This document shows positions 1 to 54,999 of a DNA stretch of 64,000 nucleotides, piece by piece (position 1 is the first letter of the stretch; each line of letters starts with the position of its first letter). The translations under genes and the position numbers were made by a program. Source of the DNA: Candidatus Bathyarchaeota archaeon (GTDB lineage Archaea > Thermoproteota > Bathyarchaeia > Bathyarchaeales > Bathycorpusculaceae); contig CAWAKC010000007.1 in assembly GCA_963782525.1 (NCBI GenBank), positions 256,001 to 320,000 on the forward strand, given 5' to 3'. Below the pieces are notes generated by a model. The model was given only the letters and a program-made list of their open reading frames with translations. It did not search any database and was not told the origin of the DNA.

Positions 1-120
1 TAAAGCTGTCGACCAATTTAATGGTGAATTATTGATATTTGATGCTAAATAGGCTAAATCCAGAAAAAGTCGTAGATACTTCAAGATTCTTATTAACCTT
101 AGTTTCCCATGTTTCCATGT

Positions 121-142
121 TCTTGTAGTCTTCAAAGACTAA
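121..142 (-). repeat. degenerate copy of island dyad site (TTAGTCTT-TGAAGA-CTACAAGA)
   Basis: Lies 18 nt downstream of the stop of ORF 160..579 and aligns loosely with the other copies. Confidence 0.35.
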
Positions 143-159
143 GAAACTAACAGTTTTCA

Positions 160-579
160 TTATTTGCTGTTTTGCGCTGGATATTGGCATTCTTTTAATT
201 CTATCAAAGAAGGTATAGGAATGCCTTGATTTATTTTTTGAAATAATTCATCAACTATTTTTAGGCAGTTATCTCTCTGTGCATTTAGCTGTATTAGTCT
301 AGGCTTTATAAAATAAACAAGGGTATAAACCAATATCATAAAAATAACTATATTTAGAAGACTTGCTAAATCGGAACTAGCTTTCAAATTAATTAATTGT
401 GAATATACTGTTCCCTGAAAAAATAAAGTTGCAAGAAAAATAAGATATCCAATAATAAAACCGTAATGAATCGAATAAGATATGTTCACTCTTGTTTGAA
501 AATAGCTCATTAAAGCTTGAACTCTTTGCAACTCCACCTCTCTATCGACAACCATAGCTTTTTGTTTTTCATTAGCCAT
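160..579 (-). CDS. hypothetical membrane protein (2 TM)
   Basis: 139-aa ORF with two hydrophobic stretches, in very AT-rich DNA. No family recognised. Confidence 0.6.
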   Translation of the reverse strand: MANEKQKAMVVDREVELQRVQALMSYFQTRVNISYSIHYGFIIGYLIFLATLFFQGTVYSQLINLKASSDLASLLNIVIFMILVYTLVYFIKPRLIQLNAQRDNCLKIVDELFQKINQGIPIPSLIELKECQYPAQNSK

Positions 580-664
580 GCTTACGCTATTTCTACGTTA
601 TGAAGTTTTAAGTTTTTGCATCGTAGTATAAGTCTTAAAAGACAATGCTCTATTAGTTAACACT

Positions 665-1369
665 ATGGCTATTCAACCGTTTGGAGTAAAAGTTAAAGAA
701 AAACACAACAGAAAGCTTTCGTTTGAACAAATTATTAGTATAGTTCTAAGCATTGCGCTTCTTTTCTCTACTGTCTATTATGCTAGCCAAAATGATAATT
801 TGCAAAAATCAAATGCTGATTTGCAAAACTTACTCTATAACTATACACCTTTCATATTTTCAAATTATTCAAGCTCAAATCTTCAGAATATATTCTTCTC
901 AATTAATGATTCAGTCATTTTGTTTGATGGGTGGGTTAACGTTGATTTGAAAGTTGTTTCCCCTTATGATGGGATGTTGAATTTAGACGTTAAAAATTTG
1001 AATTTTACAGATATGAATGGCTCATACGATATAATACCGTATTATTTCAACGTGAGTCTTCTTCAGTATTCAAAGGCTTCAATCGCTGGAGCAAATAATC
1101 ACCAATATTTTATCTCTAAAAATGTTATGAATCCAATAGTTGATAAAATCGAGGTTCAAATGTACGTCTATCTAAATACTGGAGTCCTTCAGGATGTTTT
1201 CAAGGATGTTGGAGTAAATAGCACACTTGGCGTGGGTTTCCCTTTAGGTGATATGACCTTTCAAGCTACCCTTTTTGAAACTCAAATAAACAGAAACTAT
1301 ACTCAGAATTTTATTGAGGGAATACATTGTGAAATTAATAAAAACCCTCAACGGATTATTATTGGGTAG
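665..1369 (+). CDS. hypothetical membrane-anchored exported protein
   Basis: 234-aa ORF with an N-terminal TM segment (IISIVLSIALLFSTVYY), a short coiled coil and an Asn-rich body. Confidence 0.65.
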   Translation: MAIQPFGVKVKEKHNRKLSFEQIISIVLSIALLFSTVYYASQNDNLQKSNADLQNLLYNYTPFIFSNYSSSNLQNIFFSINDSVILFDGWVNVDLKVVSPYDGMLNLDVKNLNFTDMNGSYDIIPYYFNVSLLQYSKASIAGANNHQYFISKNVMNPIVDKIEVQMYVYLNTGVLQDVFKDVGVNSTLGVGFPLGDMTFQATLFETQINRNYTQNFIEGIHCEINKNPQRIIIG

Positions 1370-1520
1370 ATTTATAACTTGAAATAGACATTTTGCTCTT
1401 GCTTTTTTTCATCTTCCTATTTGCTGTCTTATTACTGCTGACAACAAATTGTATGAAACAGCAAAAGACCACTTCAGCGTTCTAAATATAAAAGAATATA
1501 AATAAAGTTCTAAAATTATA

Positions 1521-1576
1521 GCGTTGAAACTTCCTTAACTAAACTTGATTTATAATTAGTCAAGTTTCTCGACTAA
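1521..1576 (-). repeat. tandem pair of island dyad sites (TTAGTCGA-GAAAC-TTGACTAA at 1556-1576 and TTAGTTAA-GGAAGT-TTCAACGC at 1521-1542)
   Basis: A near-perfect inverted repeat overlaps the stop codon of ORF 1556..2509, and a second degenerate copy follows it. Confidence 0.7.
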
Positions 1577-2509
1577 TTCAGTTTTGGGTTTGTACTTCTT
1601 GAAGTAAACCAGTAAGCCTACACCTACAATGAGTGCTAATGTTCCAGAAGCTATAATTACCAACAATGTTGGCAATGGTGAGGTTCCTATTGTGTTTGGA
1701 CTGAAGACAATAACAGCACCATGAATAAATGGAAAATTTTCATTTTCTTGAGAAATTACCAATTCATTTGAATTAGTGTAGTTTAATGGCGTTAGTGTCC
1801 CATTAGTATGTATAGAATAGGCTTGTATCTTATTTGAAAACGGTTCAACTTGTATATTGAATTTTTCAGGTAAATATTCGAACCAAGAATAGAGAGGATA
1901 TGAAATATTGCTACACCCATAACGCCCATAAATTGGAATTATTAATGCGTAATCTCCCAAATAGCCATAAGATGAACTGGTTTTTGGAATAGGTTGTTCA
2001 TAGTGAACTGTCACAAGAAAATCGCTTGGAACTGGAGAAACTGTCCAATTGACTTCCGCTAGATTGGCATCAAAAATATGGAAAAATCCCTTGTTATCTA
2101 TTTGCCATTTAATTTCTTGGTTATTTATCTTTACTGATAGGTTAGTTATATTTGTTGGAATTGGATAGTGAGCTTCTAATGTATTTTGTGTGACTGTAAC
2201 AGTTACATAAGGTGAGGGGTCTGTTACCAAGCCCATCCCGCTGTTTCGAGCAACATAACTATCTCCGAAACCGTAGATGGTATGCATATGATATTCTGCA
2301 TCAACATTCGCCCAAAATACTCCACTGGAACTTGAAATTGAAGCATGAATATTCGTTCCAGAAACTCCGACCTTCGGGGGAATCTCCGTATACATGGGGT
2401 TTGCTCTAACCGTATTAAAACTTTGAAGTTCGATTGAAATTAAAAGAACCATTGCTAAGAATATGGCTGTCGATATTCTCTTGATGGCAAGGTTTCTTTT
2501 TCTACGCAA
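1556..2509 (-). CDS. secreted/surface protein with C-terminal TM anchor (LLVYFKK family)
   Basis: Signal peptide ending VRA-NP, and a C-terminal TM followed by GLLVYFKKYK. Confidence 0.8.
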   Translation of the reverse strand: MRRKRNLAIKRISTAIFLAMVLLISIELQSFNTVRANPMYTEIPPKVGVSGTNIHASISSSSGVFWANVDAEYHMHTIYGFGDSYVARNSGMGLVTDPSPYVTVTVTQNTLEAHYPIPTNITNLSVKINNQEIKWQIDNKGFFHIFDANLAEVNWTVSPVPSDFLVTVHYEQPIPKTSSSYGYLGDYALIIPIYGRYGCSNISYPLYSWFEYLPEKFNIQVEPFSNKIQAYSIHTNGTLTPLNYTNSNELVISQENENFPFIHGAVIVFSPNTIGTSPLPTLLVIIASGTLALIVGVGLLVYFKKYKPKTELVEKLD

Positions 2510-2628
2510 AATTGCACCCGTTGGTTCATTTTTTTAGTATTAGTTTTTAATGTTTTAAGGTGTTAGTGCGGGTATTATTTGGATTTCAATTTGTATACTT
2601 GCCTTATTAACCGACTGGAAATAAAGGC

Positions 2629-2674
2629 TTATCGTAAACTTCATTGTCTAAAGTCTTTCAAAGTTTCTTAACTA
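2629..2674 (-). repeat. tandem pair of island dyad sites (TAGTTAA-GAAACT-TTGAAAGA at 2654-2674 and TTAGACAA-TGAAGT-TTACGATA at 2630-2651)
   Basis: The first copy overlaps the TAG stop of ORF 2672..3838. The second is followed by a TATA-like CCTTTATTT. Confidence 0.6.
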
Positions 2675-3838
2675 TCCAGTATTACGTTTATGCTTCTTGA
2701 AGTAAATCAGCAAACCGGCGACCACAAACACCGCAGCTGCTATCGAAACAGTGCCAACAGTTAAAGTTGGAAAGGTCTCAGATCCCGCATTGGGATGCGT
2801 TGGACTTGGCGAACCAGTCGATGTAGGATTTGGCCCAATCAAGGCGGAAAATGGAAATATTACAGGATAATGATCGATGGCGGTTCCTAGAACTGCGGTC
2901 CCTGTTTTGGTGGTACCGTTTGCATAATTATCAGAGTAGTTTGTGCTGTCGATGATCGCATAAGGTATGTCGCCTATTCCCAAATGGCCCAATTCCGTAG
3001 CATTAGGGTACTTTGACAGGTAATCACTCCAGTAGTTTCCGACAGAACCGTTGTCCCATTGTCCTGCGGGAGATAGTGGAACTATATTTGATACGAATGG
3101 CACGCCGATTGGAACATGGAGTATCTGCGAATTGTTTATGAAATTGTTAGAATAAAGTAGTTGGAATCCGGCGCTGTTTACATTCGCACTTTGAGTGCCC
3201 AGAGTCAGTACCACAGTGTTGTTTGTAACGTTGTTCTCTATGATTGTTGTTCCGTTGCTGTTTAGGATGTCGAGCGCCCAGTTGTTGTTTGTTATGTGGT
3301 TTTGCATTATAAGGTTGTTGTCTCCTTGCAAACGAGTAGCTCCTGTGTCGATAAGAATCGCGGCGTCACTGCTGCCCGACATACTGTTTCCACTCACGAG
3401 GTAATCATCGGCGTATATTGCGATGGCTTGATAATTGCCCCTGAACACGTTTCTTGTTATGGTGTTGTTGTTGAAAGCGCCGTAGACTCCAGCTTTCCAA
3501 CTAGTCACTTGCAGGTTTTCGACGGTTACGTTGCTAGCCATTAGAGTTATTGCTATAGCGTTCTGACTTATGCCAGGACCTTGAAGAGTATGGTTGGCTC
3601 CGTCCAACACGATATTCCCTTTTTCTACGGTTATGGAGCTGTTAAGATCCGCAGTTATTCTGTAGGTGTTTCCTTTCATTTGCATGGCAACGCCAGAAGG
3701 TGTGACGCTTCCGTCTGCTTTGATGGTTATTCCTGTAAGAGATTCAGCTTTAACAGACTGAAGGGTAATTACACAGGATGCCATCAGGAAGATAAGAACA
3801 AACAGTAGGGTGAAGCCTTTACTCATATTCATCCACAT
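2672..3838 (-). CDS. right-handed parallel beta-helix (NosD/CASH-like) surface protein with C-terminal anchor
   Basis: ITIKADGSV...NIVLDG, repeated N-x-I-x-x-N-x-I units, WDNGSVGNYWSDY, a Pro/Thr/Ser linker and GLLIYFKKHK. Confidence 0.85.
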   Translation of the reverse strand: MWMNMSKGFTLLFVLIFLMASCVITLQSVKAESLTGITIKADGSVTPSGVAMQMKGNTYRITADLNSSITVEKGNIVLDGANHTLQGPGISQNAIAITLMASNVTVENLQVTSWKAGVYGAFNNNTITRNVFRGNYQAIAIYADDYLVSGNSMSGSSDAAILIDTGATRLQGDNNLIMQNHITNNNWALDILNSNGTTIIENNVTNNTVVLTLGTQSANVNSAGFQLLYSNNFINNSQILHVPIGVPFVSNIVPLSPAGQWDNGSVGNYWSDYLSKYPNATELGHLGIGDIPYAIIDSTNYSDNYANGTTKTGTAVLGTAIDHYPVIFPFSALIGPNPTSTGSPSPTHPNAGSETFPTLTVGTVSIAAAVFVVAGLLIYFKKHKRNTG

Positions 3839-3869
3839 TAATTATGATATAATTAGTGATAAAAGAGTT

Positions 3870-3890
3870 CTTTTCAAGGTTCTTGATTAA
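3870..3890 (-). repeat. island dyad site (TTAATCAA-GAACC-TTGAAAAG)
   Basis: Overlaps the stop of ORF 3887..4714 and directly precedes AACTCTTTTATC (BRE/TATA-like) of ORF 2672..3838. Confidence 0.65.
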
Positions 3891-4714
3891 TTCAGTATTA
3901 GCTTATGTTTCTTAAAGTAAACCAGTAAACCCAAACTAATGATAATGGCAATTACTACAAGTGCAATAACTGTAAATGGAAATGATGTCTCAGGCGCTTT
4001 AGCAGTAAAATTTATTGTCTCTGATTTTGTCATATCTCCAAAAGTATTATTGCCAAAAACAACTATGCTGTGATTTCCAGAACTTAGTCCTGTTAAAGTT
4101 TTATTTCCACCTATAGTCACATTGGCTAAATTATCTAAGCTGTAGCCTAACCATGAAGTTGGCTGGTCAACTGTGAAATTCAAAGGAAAAGTTGAAAATG
4201 TTATGTTAGCACTCTGGTCTGTCAGAAGCTTAATTGAGGGAGCTTCATGCGTGATAAAGTAGACTTGAGATGAACTGTCCATAAAGAAAACAAAACTAAA
4301 CATATCATAAACACTTCCTTCTGCCTTAACTGTTAGGCTGTGGTTGCCTGCTGCTAAGTTAGGTGCAACAAAGGAAGTATAATACTGAGAAGTGCCATGC
4401 TCACCTTTCACAAGAATAAAACCTGCGTGTGGAATACTAACACTCTCGTCATCTATTTTGTAAGTCACATCAACGATATCAGAATCATAGCTACTGTATT
4501 GTGGTCCTTTAACGCTAAAGGTAATATTGAATGCCCCTGAGTAGTTAGCGTTGTTTTGTGGGCTGCCTATAGAAATAATTGGTGGAACCGCGCCTTTTGG
4601 AGGGTCAATCTGAGGTGTAAAACCGTAGGGGTTAGCATCCACGCCCTCAATCGCTTGTATCCCAATCAGCAATGAAAGAGCAAACACTATAGAAAAACTT
4701 ATTGTTCTCTTCAT
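3887..4714 (-). CDS. surface protein with two Ig-like domains and C-terminal anchor
   Basis: Signal peptide ending VDA-NPYGF, Ig-like motif LNFTVD...YSLD...GNKTLTGLSSGNHSIVV, and GLLVYFKKHK. Confidence 0.8.
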   Translation of the reverse strand: MKRTISFSIVFALSLLIGIQAIEGVDANPYGFTPQIDPPKGAVPPIISIGSPQNNANYSGAFNITFSVKGPQYSSYDSDIVDVTYKIDDESVSIPHAGFILVKGEHGTSQYYTSFVAPNLAAGNHSLTVKAEGSVYDMFSFVFFMDSSSQVYFITHEAPSIKLLTDQSANITFSTFPLNFTVDQPTSWLGYSLDNLANVTIGGNKTLTGLSSGNHSIVVFGNNTFGDMTKSETINFTAKAPETSFPFTVIALVVIAIIISLGLLVYFKKHKLILN

Positions 4715-5616
4715 TTTTTCCCCTTCATTCTCTTAAAATAAACGATTAAGCCAACAGTAGCTAGCGCAACCGCAAACATTGAAGCTAGAACCCAGAGCAT
4801 TGAAAACTGCAAAGGACTCGAAGAATCAGTTTCTACTTTGAAAAAAAGGATGCCTGAAGTGCCTACATACCCAAATGTGTCTGTTGCACAGACCGTAATG
4901 TTATGTTGCCCGTTGGATAAGCCAGTTAGAGTTGTGTTTCCTTTAATTGGTACAGGGTCTTGTCTATCTAGGCAGTAAGTCAGTTTTGGAACCGAGCGGT
5001 CGACTGTAAAACTCAAAGGAAAAGTAGAATTCGTTAAAGAACCATTCTGAAATGATACAAAACTGATTTTGGGGCTTGTATGCACCAAGAGTCCTGCTGC
5101 TGATGAGTTGACATAGAATTTTACCGATATTGGCTTTTCCAAATTAAACGTATATTCGGTTCCATTTTTGTTATAATCGCCGTGTCCATTTGCAACAATG
5201 TTTAAAGTACGATCTCCAGCTGGGATTCCACTAATGTTGAAGTTATATTGCAAGAAACGATTCTCTCCAACGGGATCCACACCAGGCGGAAAAGGACTCC
5301 ACTTTGCGTTTGACATCCAATCGCCCTGATATGTGGTGACTATGTTTAGATTTGTCGTAAGCCCCTCAGGTTGGTTTATTGTTTCATTGAAACAAAAATT
5401 AATGGGTCCATCGGAAAATGAAGCATTCTCCATCGGAGAAGTAACTCTGATGGTTATATTGACGTTATCGGGTGCAGGTACATCAACTGGAAACTTGAAT
5501 CCATAAGGATTAGCCTTGACAGACACAAAGGGGGCATCCACTTGCTCAACAACTTGAATTCCAACAACTAAAAGAAGAGCAAAGACTCCTGCAAATATGG
5601 CGTATCTTCTCTTCAT
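4711..5616 (-). CDS. surface protein with Ig-like domains and C-terminal anchor
   Basis: Paralogue of 3887..4714 (KA-NPYGF; LSFTVD...YCLD...GNTTLTGLSNGQHNITV; GLIVYFKR). Overlaps the next gene by 4 nt. Confidence 0.8.
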   Translation of the reverse strand: MKRRYAIFAGVFALLLVVGIQVVEQVDAPFVSVKANPYGFKFPVDVPAPDNVNITIRVTSPMENASFSDGPINFCFNETINQPEGLTTNLNIVTTYQGDWMSNAKWSPFPPGVDPVGENRFLQYNFNISGIPAGDRTLNIVANGHGDYNKNGTEYTFNLEKPISVKFYVNSSAAGLLVHTSPKISFVSFQNGSLTNSTFPLSFTVDRSVPKLTYCLDRQDPVPIKGNTTLTGLSNGQHNITVCATDTFGYVGTSGILFFKVETDSSSPLQFSMLWVLASMFAVALATVGLIVYFKRMKGKK

Positions 5617-6203
5617 GGCTGCCCCTTTCTTCTCCTAAAGTAAACCAATGAGATTGAAGCAACAGCCACTATTACAATCACAATAGCCAGGATATAGACT
5701 ATAGAGGGATTTAACGCAACTTGCATTTTGGGACCTGTGTTAATTGTTGGAATGTTTTGGCTTGTAGTTGGAGTAGCTGAATTAGGGATAATGCCTACTG
5801 TAAACAGCCAATTGGCTGATAACACCTTTCCTTCTGAGTCAGTTGCATAAGCATTGATTGTGTGGTTTCCTATCATTAGGTTGTGTAAGTTTTCCGTGAT
5901 AGAATATATCTGATGATTATTAGGCAAATCGGACTTAAACCAAGTTGTGTATTCTAAATTGGTAGATGTAATATTTGCCTCTCCGTCTAGGCTATAGCTA
6001 ATTGAAACAATTGCTTGAGCATCCATTGAAATATGTACCTCTACGGTGAAAGTGTAGTTGTTCCCATTTGGATAAGTTGGGTTATAACCCCTAACGTATA
6101 CTGAGGGAATTGGGTAAAAGTTAGCTTCTAACATAGGTATTGATGATAACACTGCAATTGCTGACAGTAGGATGATTGTTGTTGCCAAGAGTTTCTTTGG
6201 CAT
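5613..6203 (-). CDS. surface protein with single Ig-like domain and C-terminal anchor
   Basis: Signal peptide ending LEA-NF, ISYSLDG...GNHTINAYATD, and SLVYFRRRK. Confidence 0.75.
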   Translation of the reverse strand: MPKKLLATTIILLSAIAVLSSIPMLEANFYPIPSVYVRGYNPTYPNGNNYTFTVEVHISMDAQAIVSISYSLDGEANITSTNLEYTTWFKSDLPNNHQIYSITENLHNLMIGNHTINAYATDSEGKVLSANWLFTVGIIPNSATPTTSQNIPTINTGPKMQVALNPSIVYILAIVIVIVAVASISLVYFRRRKGQP

Positions 6204-6249
6204 ATACCGTTCCTGTCATATTATGAAGTTGAGTTTGCTTAAGTGGTTT

Positions 6250-6295
6250 TTTGTCAAACTTTCTTGCCTAAAGTTAGTCAAGATAGTTTTACAAG
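6250..6295. repeat. back-to-back island dyad sites (minus: TTAGGCAA-GAAAGT-TTGACAAA 6250-6271; plus: TTAGTCAA-GATAGT-TTTACAAG 6274-6295)
   Basis: Two oppositely oriented copies, each followed by a TATA-like element of one of the divergent genes. Confidence 0.7.
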
Positions 6296-6330
6296 AAGTC
6301 TTTTATCCGCAACCAACCCTAACCTTAATC

Positions 6331-7023
6331 ATGGGCAGTACAAGCAAGAGCTTCTCGGTACTTCTTGTCGTTATCTTAGCAGTATCAAGCCTAATAATGG
6401 TTGAATCTGCCTCTGCCCAATCAATACCTACACCATCTGTTCCAGAATTTACTGTAACGCTTATCGCTTCTCCTCCTGACAGCCATTTTGTAAATAAAAC
6501 AATAGAGTTGGCAATCAAAAATCAACCCTCCTTTCCTAAAAATGGGTTTTTCTATAATGTTCGCATAAGAATTAACGATGGTAATTGGGGTCTTCTCTAC
6601 CCTAACAATAATAGTGTGCCAAACCAGTCCGATGGTGAATATACAATCTTATCATACAGTTCAGGATATCTTGGGGTTGAATACCAATATCTTTTAGGAT
6701 ATAAGGTAGAGAACCTGACTGCAGATGATAAAATAGATTTTCAAGTACAAGCCATGGTTGGGTCTATATACCGAGTTTTTAACCCTAATGCAACAAACCA
6801 ATTAGAAATGTATCCATATATTTTTACTGGAGAAACAAGTGATTGGAGCAACACACAAACAATAACCATACCTGAAACTTCCACCTCACCCGCACCAAAT
6901 CCAACACCAACTCCTACCCTTTCAGAGTTTCCAGCTTTGGCAATTTTGCCTTTGTTTATTTCTTTGCTCTCTGTGGGTTTGCTTTATAGAAAGCATCGAA
7001 AGACCGCTCGATTCAGTGAGTAG
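6331..7023 (+). CDS. surface protein with PEF-CTERM-like C-terminus
   Basis: Start moved to ATG 6331 (MGSTSKSF... signal peptide). Contains IPTPSVPEFTV, a PT-rich linker, and SEFPALAILPLF-TM-RKHRK. Confidence 0.8.
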   Translation: MGSTSKSFSVLLVVILAVSSLIMVESASAQSIPTPSVPEFTVTLIASPPDSHFVNKTIELAIKNQPSFPKNGFFYNVRIRINDGNWGLLYPNNNSVPNQSDGEYTILSYSSGYLGVEYQYLLGYKVENLTADDKIDFQVQAMVGSIYRVFNPNATNQLEMYPYIFTGETSDWSNTQTITIPETSTSPAPNPTPTPTLSEFPALAILPLFISLLSVGLLYRKHRKTARFSE

Positions 7024-7139
7024 CTTTTTCATTCTTATGTGGTATGTGACAGGTTGAGACGGTAGAGATGATGATTGAGATAGACTAAATCTGAGAGATT
7101 ATTCTCCTTATTTTAGATAGAGTACCAGACTACATTCAT

Positions 7140-53451: not shown

Positions 53452-54999
53452 TTGAGGCGAATAATCTTGGCAATTAACGTAGAATCTGCATACAAGGAGC
53501 TTTTATCAAAAACCAAAGATTTGGTAGTGCTTTCGACGGCTGAAGGAATCGTCCACTGGGACATGGAAATCTACATGCCTCCCAAAGCGGTGGAGCAACG
53601 CAGCCAACAACTGGCGCTACTCAACCGCATCCGCCACAAAATGGCAACCGACCCGGAGATCGGTAAACTCTTAAAAATTATCCGAACAAACGCAGAGTAC
53701 CAAGCGCTTGAAGAAGTAGAAAAACGAAACCTGTACCTCATGAACAAAAGCTACCAAGAACAAACGGCTCTGCCCGAAAAACTCGTTTCAGACCTTGCCA
53801 TGCAAGAGACTTTGACCGTTAATGTTTGGAAGAAAGCAAAAGCCAAAAAGGACTACAACCTCTTCAAGCCTGAATTGCAAAAACTGCTTGACCTAAACAA
53901 GCAAGCGGCAGAAATTCTCATGAAAGTTAAAGAAACCAAAACGCCCTACGAAGCGTTGCTTGACAATTTTGAGCCCAAAATGCCTGCACAGACCATAACC
54001 GCAACCTTCAACCAGTTGCTGGCAGGTTTAAAACCGTTAATTGCAAAGATAGAAGATTGCAGGGCCAAAACGAACACGCAAATCCTCAATCAACCCGTTC
54101 CAGTCGAGGACCAACGCGAAATCACGCAACTCATAACCCAATCGCTCGGCTACGACACTGCTTCATCGGCGGCTGGTGGAAGAGTGGACGAGACAGAACA
54201 CCCCTTCACCACAGGATACTACGATGATGTACGCATAACCACGCACTATTACCTCAACAATTTTGCAAGCTCAATCTTCTCGGTACTCCATGAAAGCGGC
54301 CACGCCCTCTACGAGCAAAACCTCAACCCAAAATGGCAATATCAACCCGTCGGCTCAACCTGCTCGTACGGCGTTCATGAATCGCAATCGCGTTTCTATG
54401 AAAATATCATTGGGCGTTCCAAGGAGTTCTGGACGTGGTTTCTGCCAAAAATCAAGCAAGCCGCACCAAGCCTTAGCAATCTCCAGTTAGACCCATTTAT
54501 CCATGCTGTAAACAAAGTTGAACGCTCAAAAATCAGGATTGAAGCCGACGAAGTAACCTATAGCCTCCACATCATAATTCGTTTTGAAATTGAAAGAGAC
54601 CTATTCGCAAACAAAATTACTGTCGACGAACTACCAGAGGCATGGAATCAGAAATACGCTGACTACCTGGGCGTGAAAATCAAGAACGACTCCGAGGGTG
54701 TAATGCAGGATACTCATTGGGCAAGCGGATTGTACGGTTACTTCCCAAGCTACGCATTGGGAAACATTTACAGTGGGCAAATAACCTCGGCAATTAACAA
54801 GGACTTGCCAAACTGGCGCGGAGAATTGGCTGAGGGAAAACTCGAAAACGTTAACACTTGGCTAAAAACGAACATCCACAGCAAAAGCGATTTCTATGAC
54901 CCCGAAGAACTAATTAAGCTATCAACTGGAACATGCCTGAATTCACAACCATACCTGCAGTACTTAAACAAAAAATACGGCGAACTCTACGGATTTTAA
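53452..54999 (+). CDS. carboxypeptidase, M32 family
   Basis: HPF, DVRITT, HESGH, HESQSR, IRIEADE, GVMQDTHW, YFPSYALG. Confidence 0.96.
   Translation: MRRIILAINVESAYKELLSKTKDLVVLSTAEGIVHWDMEIYMPPKAVEQRSQQLALLNRIRHKMATDPEIGKLLKIIRTNAEYQALEEVEKRNLYLMNKSYQEQTALPEKLVSDLAMQETLTVNVWKKAKAKKDYNLFKPELQKLLDLNKQAAEILMKVKETKTPYEALLDNFEPKMPAQTITATFNQLLAGLKPLIAKIEDCRAKTNTQILNQPVPVEDQREITQLITQSLGYDTASSAAGGRVDETEHPFTTGYYDDVRITTHYYLNNFASSIFSVLHESGHALYEQNLNPKWQYQPVGSTCSYGVHESQSRFYENIIGRSKEFWTWFLPKIKQAAPSLSNLQLDPFIHAVNKVERSKIRIEADEVTYSLHIIIRFEIERDLFANKITVDELPEAWNQKYADYLGVKIKNDSEGVMQDTHWASGLYGYFPSYALGNIYSGQITSAINKDLPNWRGELAEGKLENVNTWLKTNIHSKSDFYDPEELIKLSTGTCLNSQPYLQYLNKKYGELYGF

Follow-up and report, generated by a model that had tools for sequence, protein, structure and literature searches.

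A predicted operator dyad in the promoters of anchored surface-protein operons of a Bathyarchaeota genome

The gene array, its dyads and their promoters

The window considered here, by which we mean the whole stretch of 64,000 nucleotides (nt) analysed on contig CAWAKC010000007.1 (C7 below) of a Candidatus Bathyarchaeota archaeon, begins with a run of genes, at positions 1-7100, whose products begin with a signal peptide and have at the C-terminus a hydrophobic anchor and then basic residues, with ends such as ...LLVYFKKHK and ...SLVYFRRRKGQP. Our subject is an inverted repeat, or dyad, that recurs among these genes and that, judged from its sequence and setting, is very probably the operator of a dimeric transcription factor, placed in the promoters of operons for C-terminally anchored surface proteins. 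The genes concerned are the following:

1556..2509, minus strand: gene A, anchored surface protein; start uncertain
2672..3838, minus strand: gene B, anchored NosD-like beta-helix surface protein (PF05048, 38 bits against a cut-off of 23.6)
3887..4714, minus strand: gene C, anchored surface protein with an immunoglobulin-like (Ig-like) domain (Big_7, 27.1 bits against a cut-off of 24.1)
4711..5616, minus strand: gene D, anchored surface protein, with a start that overlaps the E stop
5613..6203, minus strand: gene E, of the MPKKLL family, with a signal peptide and a membrane anchor ending SLVYFRRRKGQP; first gene of the E-D-C operon
6331..7023, plus strand: gene F, secreted, with a C-terminal anchor (SEFPALAILPLF...RKHRK)

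The start of gene C likewise overlaps the stop of gene D, no dyad lies between E and D, and C, D and E share a site at the head of their operon only. Gene E has no match in Pfam or NCBIfam, and the surface proteins as a group match no sorting-signal or other family in NCBIfam at E <= 0.01.

The core of the dyad is CAAGAAAGTTTGACAA, with arms GTCAA/TTGAC around a spacer of 6 nt. In the host genome it mostly takes the form TTAGrCAAGAAAGTTTGACAA, in which the arms TTAGTCAA and TTGACTAA flank an A-rich 6-nt spacer, and the window copies align as TTAGnCAAGAAAGTTTGACAA when each is oriented toward the gene that it precedes. The two-fold symmetry of the dyad is confirmed, and the size of the site, 22 bp, suits a dimer. 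Copies were scored with a non-circular matrix made from 19 genome sites, all of them outside the window; it supersedes an earlier refined matrix that had been trained on the window copies and whose 13-20 bits for the weak copies were therefore circular. The dyads of the window and their core promoter elements, with scores under the non-window matrix, are these:

6251..6271, minus strand: strong dyad TTAGGCAAGAAAGTTTGACAA, predicted to serve the E-D-C operon as proximal operator and the divergent gene F as distal site; 31.1 bits
6237..6244, minus strand: TATA-like octamer ACTTAAGC of the E-D-C promoter, 6 nt past the dyad, with AAAACC in the position of the B-recognition element (BRE)
6274..6294, plus strand: strong dyad TTAGTCAAGATAGTTTTACAA, predicted proximal operator of gene F; 24.3 bits
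6301..6308, plus strand: TATA box TTTTATCC of gene F, 6 nt past the dyad and 30 nt before the ATG at 6331
3870..3890, minus strand: decayed dyad TTAATCAAGAACCTTGAAAAG of the gene B promoter, overlapping the stop of gene C; 1.3 bits
3856-3863, minus strand: TATA-like octamer TTTATCAC of the gene B promoter, separated from the dyad by AACTCT, with the spacing preserved
2655..2675, minus strand: moderate dyad ATAGTTAAGAAACTTTGAAAG, overlapping the gene B stop and serving as distal site in the promoter of gene A; 12.7 bits
2631..2651, minus strand: putative decayed proximal copy TTAGACAATGAAGTTTACGAT, then 6 nt and the octamer TTATTTCC at 2617-2624; -0.1 bits, assigned on context only
1556..1576, minus strand: near-perfect palindrome TTAGTCGAGAAACTTGACTAA in the last seven codons of gene A, distal partner of 1522-1542; 5.8 bits
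1522..1542, minus strand: decayed copy TTAGTTAAGGAAGTTTCAACG, then 6 nt and the octamer TTTTAGAA at 1508-1515; 2.0 bits
121..142, minus strand: separate short palindrome AGTCTTTGAAGACT, just past the 3' end of the membrane-protein gene 160-579; negative score

The original prediction had listed eight inverted-repeat stretches here as copies of one element. All eight are present, where it had placed them or 1-4 nt away (1521-1542 and 2630-2651 in its listing), and as a single element the set holds up in part: two copies are strong and one is moderate, four are decayed, and the stretch at 121-142 is a different palindrome that does not belong with them. The four weak copies are likely to be decayed relatives of the dyad, a judgement made on context, since each either has a TATA-like octamer 6 nt downstream or is the distal partner of a copy that does; the chief difference between 3870-3890 and good sites is one missing spacer base. 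What had been noted about the arrangement of the copies proves accurate. Three of them do overlap a stop codon after ACTG(A/G)A, these being the 3' ends of paralogous genes, and two lie at identical spacing before a BRE/TATA-like element (GAACTCTTTTATC and GAAGTCTTTTATC). The two back-to-back copies do stand between divergent genes, 6251-6271 and 6274-6294 each being proximal for one gene and distal for the other. Beyond these, the window has no strong copy, the best match elsewhere scoring 13.9 bits at 53798, within a coding frame.

With the strict consensus TTAGTCAAGNANGTTTGACAA and at most three mismatches, the only matches in the window are 6251-6271 on the minus strand and 6274-6294 on the plus strand, two against 0.04 expected. 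Under the non-window matrix, three matches of at least 12 bits fall within 1-6300, against 0.20 predicted from the density in the genome, and one falls across the remaining 57.7 kb of the window. Two looser descriptions were tried and set aside: the consensus TTAGTCAANNNNNTTTNA with at most two mismatches gave 17 matches, seven of them within 1-6300, against 13.5 expected, which is no window-wide enrichment, and a first matrix drawn from seven window copies reached only about twofold enrichment (29 matches of at least 16 bits against 11-16 in five shuffles).

Our analysis indicates that the dyad is held at a nearly constant distance from the core promoter. A TATA-like octamer begins 5-7 nt past the dyad at 20 of 21 proximal sites, the usual gap being 6 nt, and at none of the 21 does one begin at offsets 0-2 or 8-12; the octamer pattern, whose background frequency is 3%, was defined after the data were seen. 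The 6-nt stretches that join dyad to octamer include AAAACC, GAAGTC and GAACTC, and the octamers include ACTTAAGC, TCTTAAGC and TTTTATnn. The octamer ACTTAAGC recurs at equal offset in seven further promoters of the genome, and the near variants ACTTAAAC and TCTTAAGC in four more. Since the dyad ends 6 nt before the TATA-like element, a bound protein would sit against the BRE, where transcription factor B (TFB) binds. At most proximal sites the dyad, or only its right half (cTTGACwAAc), is repeated 24 nt upstream, centre to centre. The distance from the start of the TATA element to the ATG is 30 nt at gene F and at an unrelated gene on contig C11, which suggests leaderless mRNA; in MPKKLL genes it is 41 nt. 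In an RNA library of a relative, one contig starts at 6330, one base before the ATG of gene F, which hints only weakly at a transcript 5' end, since the ends of contigs are not those of transcripts.

The promoter at 1508-1542 has no gene downstream and faces the relic of a PIN gene. This relic (1430-1505, plus strand) consists of the last 24 codons of a PIN-domain (VapC-like) gene (ITADNKLYETAKDHFSVLNIKEYK, then the stop), and in a close relative, genome G010, an intact two-gene pair stands at its position (PF01850, 48.7 bits). The palindrome at 121-142, whose fold of -6.8 kcal/mol is equalled by 14 of 200 shuffles, may be a hairpin at the 3' end of gene 160-579.

Distribution of the dyad in the genome and in its relatives

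The genome searched comprises 2.87 Mb in 12 contigs. Across it the 16-nt core occurs 7 times exactly, one of these copies lying in 6251-6271, 10 times with at most one mismatch and 20 times with at most two, and the reversed 16-mer used as a control pattern has 0 occurrences in the whole genome. A 22-mer consensus derived from relatives finds 11 matches at up to four mismatches, against 0, 0 and 1 in three shuffles.

These sites are associated with one class of gene. Strong sites stand 36-47 nt before the start codons of proteins with a signal peptide and a C-terminal anchor, and the families so equipped are unrelated and differ in their N-termini: the MPKKLL family, NosD beta-helices, a PQQ beta-propeller, Ig-like proteins and proteins of no known kind. 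Of 206 anchored open reading frames (ORFs), 11 have a site of at least 17 bits in the 150 nt upstream, against 6 of 2555 others (Fisher p = 2.6e-9), in a test whose ORF calls were crude, whose matrix took in window sites and whose count is inflated by non-independent paralogues. The pattern for the anchor motif was widened for this test, the first version having been too narrow (20 ORFs). On contig C1, a 35-kb array has strong sites solely at operon heads, not between every gene.

The C1 array, taken as the 30 kb at C1:53600-82500 (loci L021 and L022), encodes some 30 anchored surface proteins, its operons having 2-6 genes each, and many of the proteins have near-identical signal peptides (MKRRYA...GIQAVEVVDANP) and tails (SLVYFRRRKGKP). 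It also contains a two-gene insert at L021:14146-14749, the second ORF of which begins VDENIPRD, a start that may resemble that of some PIN proteins.

How far does the dyad extend beyond this genome? Among genomes of the same genus, 16 of 24 contain the 16-mer with at most one mismatch, and in a first draw of relatives one genome of another family had 12 matches against 1 for the control. We then have an order-wide sample of 151 genomes (150 drawn, plus the genome described here), of which 41 have a match to the 16-mer. Two or more matches are nearly restricted to the genus itself, to close genera and to one genus of another family, in which 17 of 19 genomes have a match; reversed-pattern controls gave 0-2 matches per genome. 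The dyad in those species is often a perfect 8-6-8 palindrome, TTAGTCAA-GAAAGT-TTGACTAA, and occurs in pairs, with tandem copies 24 to about 46 nt apart in other species. It has the same spacing to BRE and TATA and the same kind of gene downstream, and in an alignment of promoter loci the block of dyad, BRE and TATA is near-invariant where the flanks diverge. As for the window copies, the strong dyad at 6274-6294 is kept in G010 with one change, and the palindrome at 1556-1576 is conserved there.

Two further observations come from the other family. In genome G040 (locus L052) a dyad stands 116 nt upstream of a gene for a regulator that looks like DtxR/MntR, judged by eye from its N-terminus. 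Gene F of the window and several targets in that family (G040 L001, L049) end in (P/S)EFP, a hydrophobic stretch and basic residues, ends which recall the archaeosortase-type PEF-CTERM signals; NCBIfam gave no hit for them at E <= 0.01.

An operator and its possible regulator

How could a site of this kind control its promoter? By analogy, a 22-bp symmetric site that ends where the BRE starts is the layout of archaeal regulators that act on the recruitment of TFB and TATA-binding protein (TBP). For two such regulators, TrmBL1 and Tar, binding upstream of BRE/TATA is described as activating and binding downstream as repressing (PMC4706686 for TrmBL1, PMC6737238 for Tar). We propose that the factor would help TFB and TBP to bind core elements that differ from the common archaeal TATA, and that it would switch some 15-20 envelope-protein promoters together. 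The usual archaeal TATA box is T/A-rich, and the octamer ACTTAAGC of the largest family departs from it in our judgement, which would fit dependence on an activator; as between activation and repression by blocking of the BRE, we lean somewhat toward activation. The original prediction had offered a BRE-adjacent operator under a single regulator as the alternative to a recombination system, and it is this alternative that the TATA spacing, the link to one class of gene, the conservation across species and the position at operon heads support.

Several observations weigh against the operator reading. Five of the eight listed copies are unrecognisable to a matrix built without them, and several window promoters may be dead or no longer under control. 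One paralogous promoter family, that of the MPKKLL genes, accounts for many of the strong sites; its whole 5' region is conserved, and because of this the site counts overstate the number of independent observations. Moreover, not every strong site heads a surface-protein gene: no ORF lies within 400 nt of those at C3 89014 and C4 43910, the promoter at C1 82657 is an orphan, and the sites at C11 12106 and C1 490457 head, respectively, an ORF of 59 amino acids (aa) and a 128-aa protein that looks cytoplasmic and has no signal peptide. Finally, we infer the factor, the direction of control and the signal alike.

Some of these sites have settings of their own. At C3:88990-89034 (L032) tandem dyads of 24.8 and 17.0 bits precede, by about 490 nt, genes for a TusA-like protein and a cysteine desulfurase, and a TATA-like element at the usual offset is absent. 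The orphan promoter, at C1:82657-82720 (L022:14657-14720), is of the MPKKLL type (dyad, AAAACC, ACTTAAAC) with no reading frame behind it, and is a remnant of gene loss. At C11:12106-12349 (L024:1106-1349) a strong dyad and TATA precede the 59-aa ORF, which has a CxxC...HxxC pattern and lies upstream of a proteasome beta-subunit gene; a small ORF of the same type stands behind two dyads in genome G023 (L013), and the 59-aa ORF may be a small zinc-binding member of the regulon.

Which protein might bind the dyad? As a tentative choice, which we regard as possible but doubtful, we name the product of C1:490578-491918 as the cognate factor, a membrane-tethered one-component regulator. The strong dyad with its TATA at C1 490457 (minus strand), which heads the 128-aa ORF, lies about 120 nt from this divergent gene. 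The protein has 447 aa and matches HTH_5 (23.8 bits, cut-off 22), HTH_20 (28.9, cut-off 27) and DUF7347 (33.4, cut-off 27.6); its score against the NCBIfam family HTH_metalloreg is 29.3 bits, under the cut-off of 55, and by sequence it has one weak ArsR hit in the PDB (E = 0.0079). In a structure model with a mean predicted local distance difference test (pLDDT) of 78.7, the N-terminal 90 residues are matched by Foldseek to HlyU, CzrA and SmtB with probability 1.0 and a TM-score of about 0.7 normalised to the target. A single long helix (residues 108-160), which is predicted to span the membrane, comes next, and the predicted extracytoplasmic part amounts to about 280 residues. The C-terminal part is matched to the C-terminal domain of YpeB (5boi) with E = 1.9e-8 and a TM-score of only 0.29/0.50 at a root-mean-square deviation of 9.6, and to vibriolysin propeptides too; Pfam gave no PepSY hit at E <= 0.01. 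On the model, then, the candidate would combine a winged helix of the ArsR/SmtB type with PepSY-like outer domains. Dimers of the ArsR/SmtB family bind imperfect inverted repeats, and the N-terminus of the candidate matches both the fold of the repressors CzrA, SmtB and HlyU and their HTH_5 family. Unlike the classical members, which are soluble, sense metals and repress by occupying the promoter, the candidate has a membrane helix and an outer part.

The comparison across genomes cuts both ways. In 6 of 6 orthologues of the candidate with at least 54% identity, the island of dyad and TATA is the best-conserved block beside the gene. Against the candidate, among remoter homologues (40-44% identity) a site of at least 13 bits lies within 1.5 kb at 2 of 10 (G008 and G024), and in the 330 nt upstream, which could be inspected in 8 of the 10 because two have cut flanks, a dyad is present only at G008, the G040 copy having none. 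Full-length homologues (E <= 1e-80) occur in 41 of the 151 order genomes, among them 16 of the 18 genomes with two or more motif matches, and the distant genus that carries the motif has them in 18 of its 19 genomes; in 25 of the 41 candidate-bearing genomes the 16-mer has fewer than two matches, which again tells against the candidate. The co-occurrence of candidate and motif is suggestive only, since it amounts to about two clades and any gene so distributed would share it. Clusters of look-alikes of the candidate in a protein atlas are mostly from Candidatus Bathyarchaeota. Another gene for a winged-helix protein, C1:50507-51268, borders the C1 array; it was considered and rejected, being present in 3 of the 151 order genomes, a range too narrow for the cognate factor.

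Does the dyad require a dedicated regulator at all? It could be promoter sequence inherited along with duplicated genes, or an extended upstream promoter element recognised by a basal factor, for instance a paralogue of TFB, and we regard this as improbable. The strongest copies are indeed found in one paralogous family, in which the 5' untranslated region and the signal-peptide coding sequence are conserved too, and a fixed distance to BRE/TATA is what one expects of a basal element. However, the dyad persists while flanks diverge, across the promoters of unrelated genes and across species (with the neighbouring protein down to 54% identity), and it is carried by a small coherent set of promoters only. 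TFB reads the asymmetric BRE, of about 6-7 nt, whereas the perfect 8-6-8 symmetry in many relatives and the tandem copies 24-46 nt apart point to a dimeric binder.

Turnover of the arrays and its relation to the dyads

The original prediction had favoured a cassette-recombination system, and with it variation of the gene content between sites among close relatives, with breakpoints inside the spacer. The variation in gene content is what we find. Our evidence on junctions consists of genome comparisons and assembled contigs; the sequencing runs compared were all contigs, and none matched more than 0.17 of the sampled words. The shared blocks of the window and G010 are 90-94% identical. In G010, D and E are absent, the body of A and the B gene are different, a B-like gene directly follows C with no promoter between them, and 3.5 kb of other genes replaces most of gene F. 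The breaks at about 1633 and at 3908 both fall within coding sequence for the C-terminal anchor, the break at 6233 falls just past the TATA-like octamer, and those at 4637 and 6449/7079 are distant from any dyad. One metagenome contig has the same form as G010, joining 4637 to 6233.

Another metagenome contig joins 1584 to 2686, so that gene A and its promoter are gone. The net loss of 1099 nt is the distance between the dyads 1556-1576 and 2655-2675, which are the sole pair in the window with a shared spacer, GAAACT. The contig keeps A-type sequence over the full length of the dyad and for 8 nt past it, and the crossover lies 8-11 nt outside the dyads; it therefore took place in tail-coding sequence, not in the spacer. 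On C1, an indel of 6.5 kb relative to G010 has about 30 nt of homologous tail-coding sequence at its flanks (overlap C1 72447-72477), and its left edge ends after TTAGGCAAA, an edge that is uninformative because it is squeezed between two convergent stop codons. Two further joints carry no weight: one that goes back from 6282 to 5641 (depth 3.3) was rejected as a rearrangement, being accounted for by a paralogous locus, and one in an RNA library from 3264 to 6946 (side 21) is uninformative, as are the portions of the window to which no contig matched. Among the junctions resolved by alignment or by a contig joint, none has its breakpoint at a constant position within a dyad spacer.

The gain and loss of units is best explained by ordinary homologous or unequal recombination within the module formed by anchor coding sequence, dyads, promoter and signal peptide. 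Since the junctions are scattered over this module, unequal homologous exchange suffices and a site-specific mechanism is not needed. One might still suppose that the dyad doubles as an operator and as the crossover point of a dedicated site-specific recombinase that swaps promoter-equipped surface-protein units; we consider this very unlikely, although if true it would be an integron-like means for this archaeon to vary its envelope. What speaks for it is the plasticity of the arrays and the natural variant that is short of a single dyad-to-dyad unit between the two window sites of equal spacer. Slightly less probable again is that the dyads are simply tyrosine-recombinase core sites, with units of site, promoter, gene or genes and site exchangeable in the manner of integrons or pdif modules.

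The case for recombinase core sites is easily stated. Like Xer/dif, pdif and attC sites, the dyads have inverted arms (of 8 nt) around an asymmetric spacer of about 6 nt, and lie between units of variable content, the gene content of the arrays differing between relatives that are 90-97% identical. Moreover, the contig that lacks gene A lacks exactly the unit from 1556-1576 to 2655-2675, and at one edge of the 6.5-kb indel the homology stops directly after the left arm, TTAGGCAAA. Set against this, the dyad retained in the contig without gene A comes with its flank wholly from one parent, and the other junctions lie in anchor coding (about 1633, 3908, C1 72447-72477) or past the TATA element (6233), so that the breakpoints share no point in the spacer. 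Strand exchange by tyrosine recombinases requires matching spacers, whereas those of seven window copies are of six kinds: GAAAGT, GATAGT, GAACCT, GAAACT, TGAAGT and GGAAGT. Unlike Xer/dif, pdif and attC sites, furthermore, the dyads are many per genome, occur only at operon heads at a fixed distance from TATA, and have no recombinase nearby: the window is indeed without one, as first noted, since none of the 8 Phage_integrase (PF00589) matches of the genome is on C7, and the match nearest to the C1 array, at C1:2818, is about 46 kb off, with none within about 45 kb; a recombinase encoded elsewhere could still act from a distance. As an integron- or pdif-like cassette system, then, the array is not borne out.

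Least probable of all is a role at the RNA level, in which the palindrome would form a terminator or processing hairpin where upstream genes have their 3' ends: three copies do overlap the stop codons of such genes, and 1556-1576 folds at -10.9 kcal/mol (z = -6.7), but the five other element copies folded (six were folded, along with 121-142, and 2631-2651 was left out) reach 0 to -2.4 kcal/mol, no better than shuffles, the strongest pair lies upstream of both divergent TATA elements and so would be left out of transcripts that start from them, no T run follows the dyad, and an Rfam search gave no match up to E = 0.1.

We return, then, to the dyad as a predicted operator, which can be set beside regulators already known. 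The TGM operator of TrmBL1 in Pyrococcus furiosus and the Tar site TGGACA-N8-TGTCCA of Thermococcus kodakarensis are, as is proposed for the dyad, palindromic sites of dimeric archaeal regulators common to a set of promoters (PMC4706686, PMC6737238). The dyad differs from them in sequence, in its 8-6-8 layout, in being usually tandem and in abutting the BRE directly; their targets lie in metabolism, whereas those predicted for the dyad are envelope proteins; and TrmBL1 is of the TrmB family, whereas the candidate binder would be ArsR-like and membrane-tethered. The nearest functional analogues of the candidate are ArnR and ArnR1 of Sulfolobus acidocaldarius, which are described as membrane-bound one-component activators that bind at promoters of surface structures, archaellum and pili (PMC6396743). 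ArnR targets type-IV-pilus-like filaments, whereas the targets here are anchored surface proteins, and unlike ArnR the candidate would have a sensor part that is PepSY-like and lies outside the cell.

An operator next to the BRE is a well-known principle, and this regulon and its candidate regulator seem to be undescribed in the literature covered; a search on promoter control and palindromic sites in Bathyarchaeia, with subscription journals outside its coverage, found no paper, and a looser one gave nothing relevant among its 8 best-ranked matches. What is gained would thus be a new regulon and not a new kind of system. Bathyarchaeia are an abundant group with few cultures, and for them the module supplies a cis-element, a list of about 15-20 promoters, predicted transcription starts and one named candidate regulator. 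More generally, in arrays that turn over fast between close relatives, the dyads would mark which of the variable surface-protein genes switch together.

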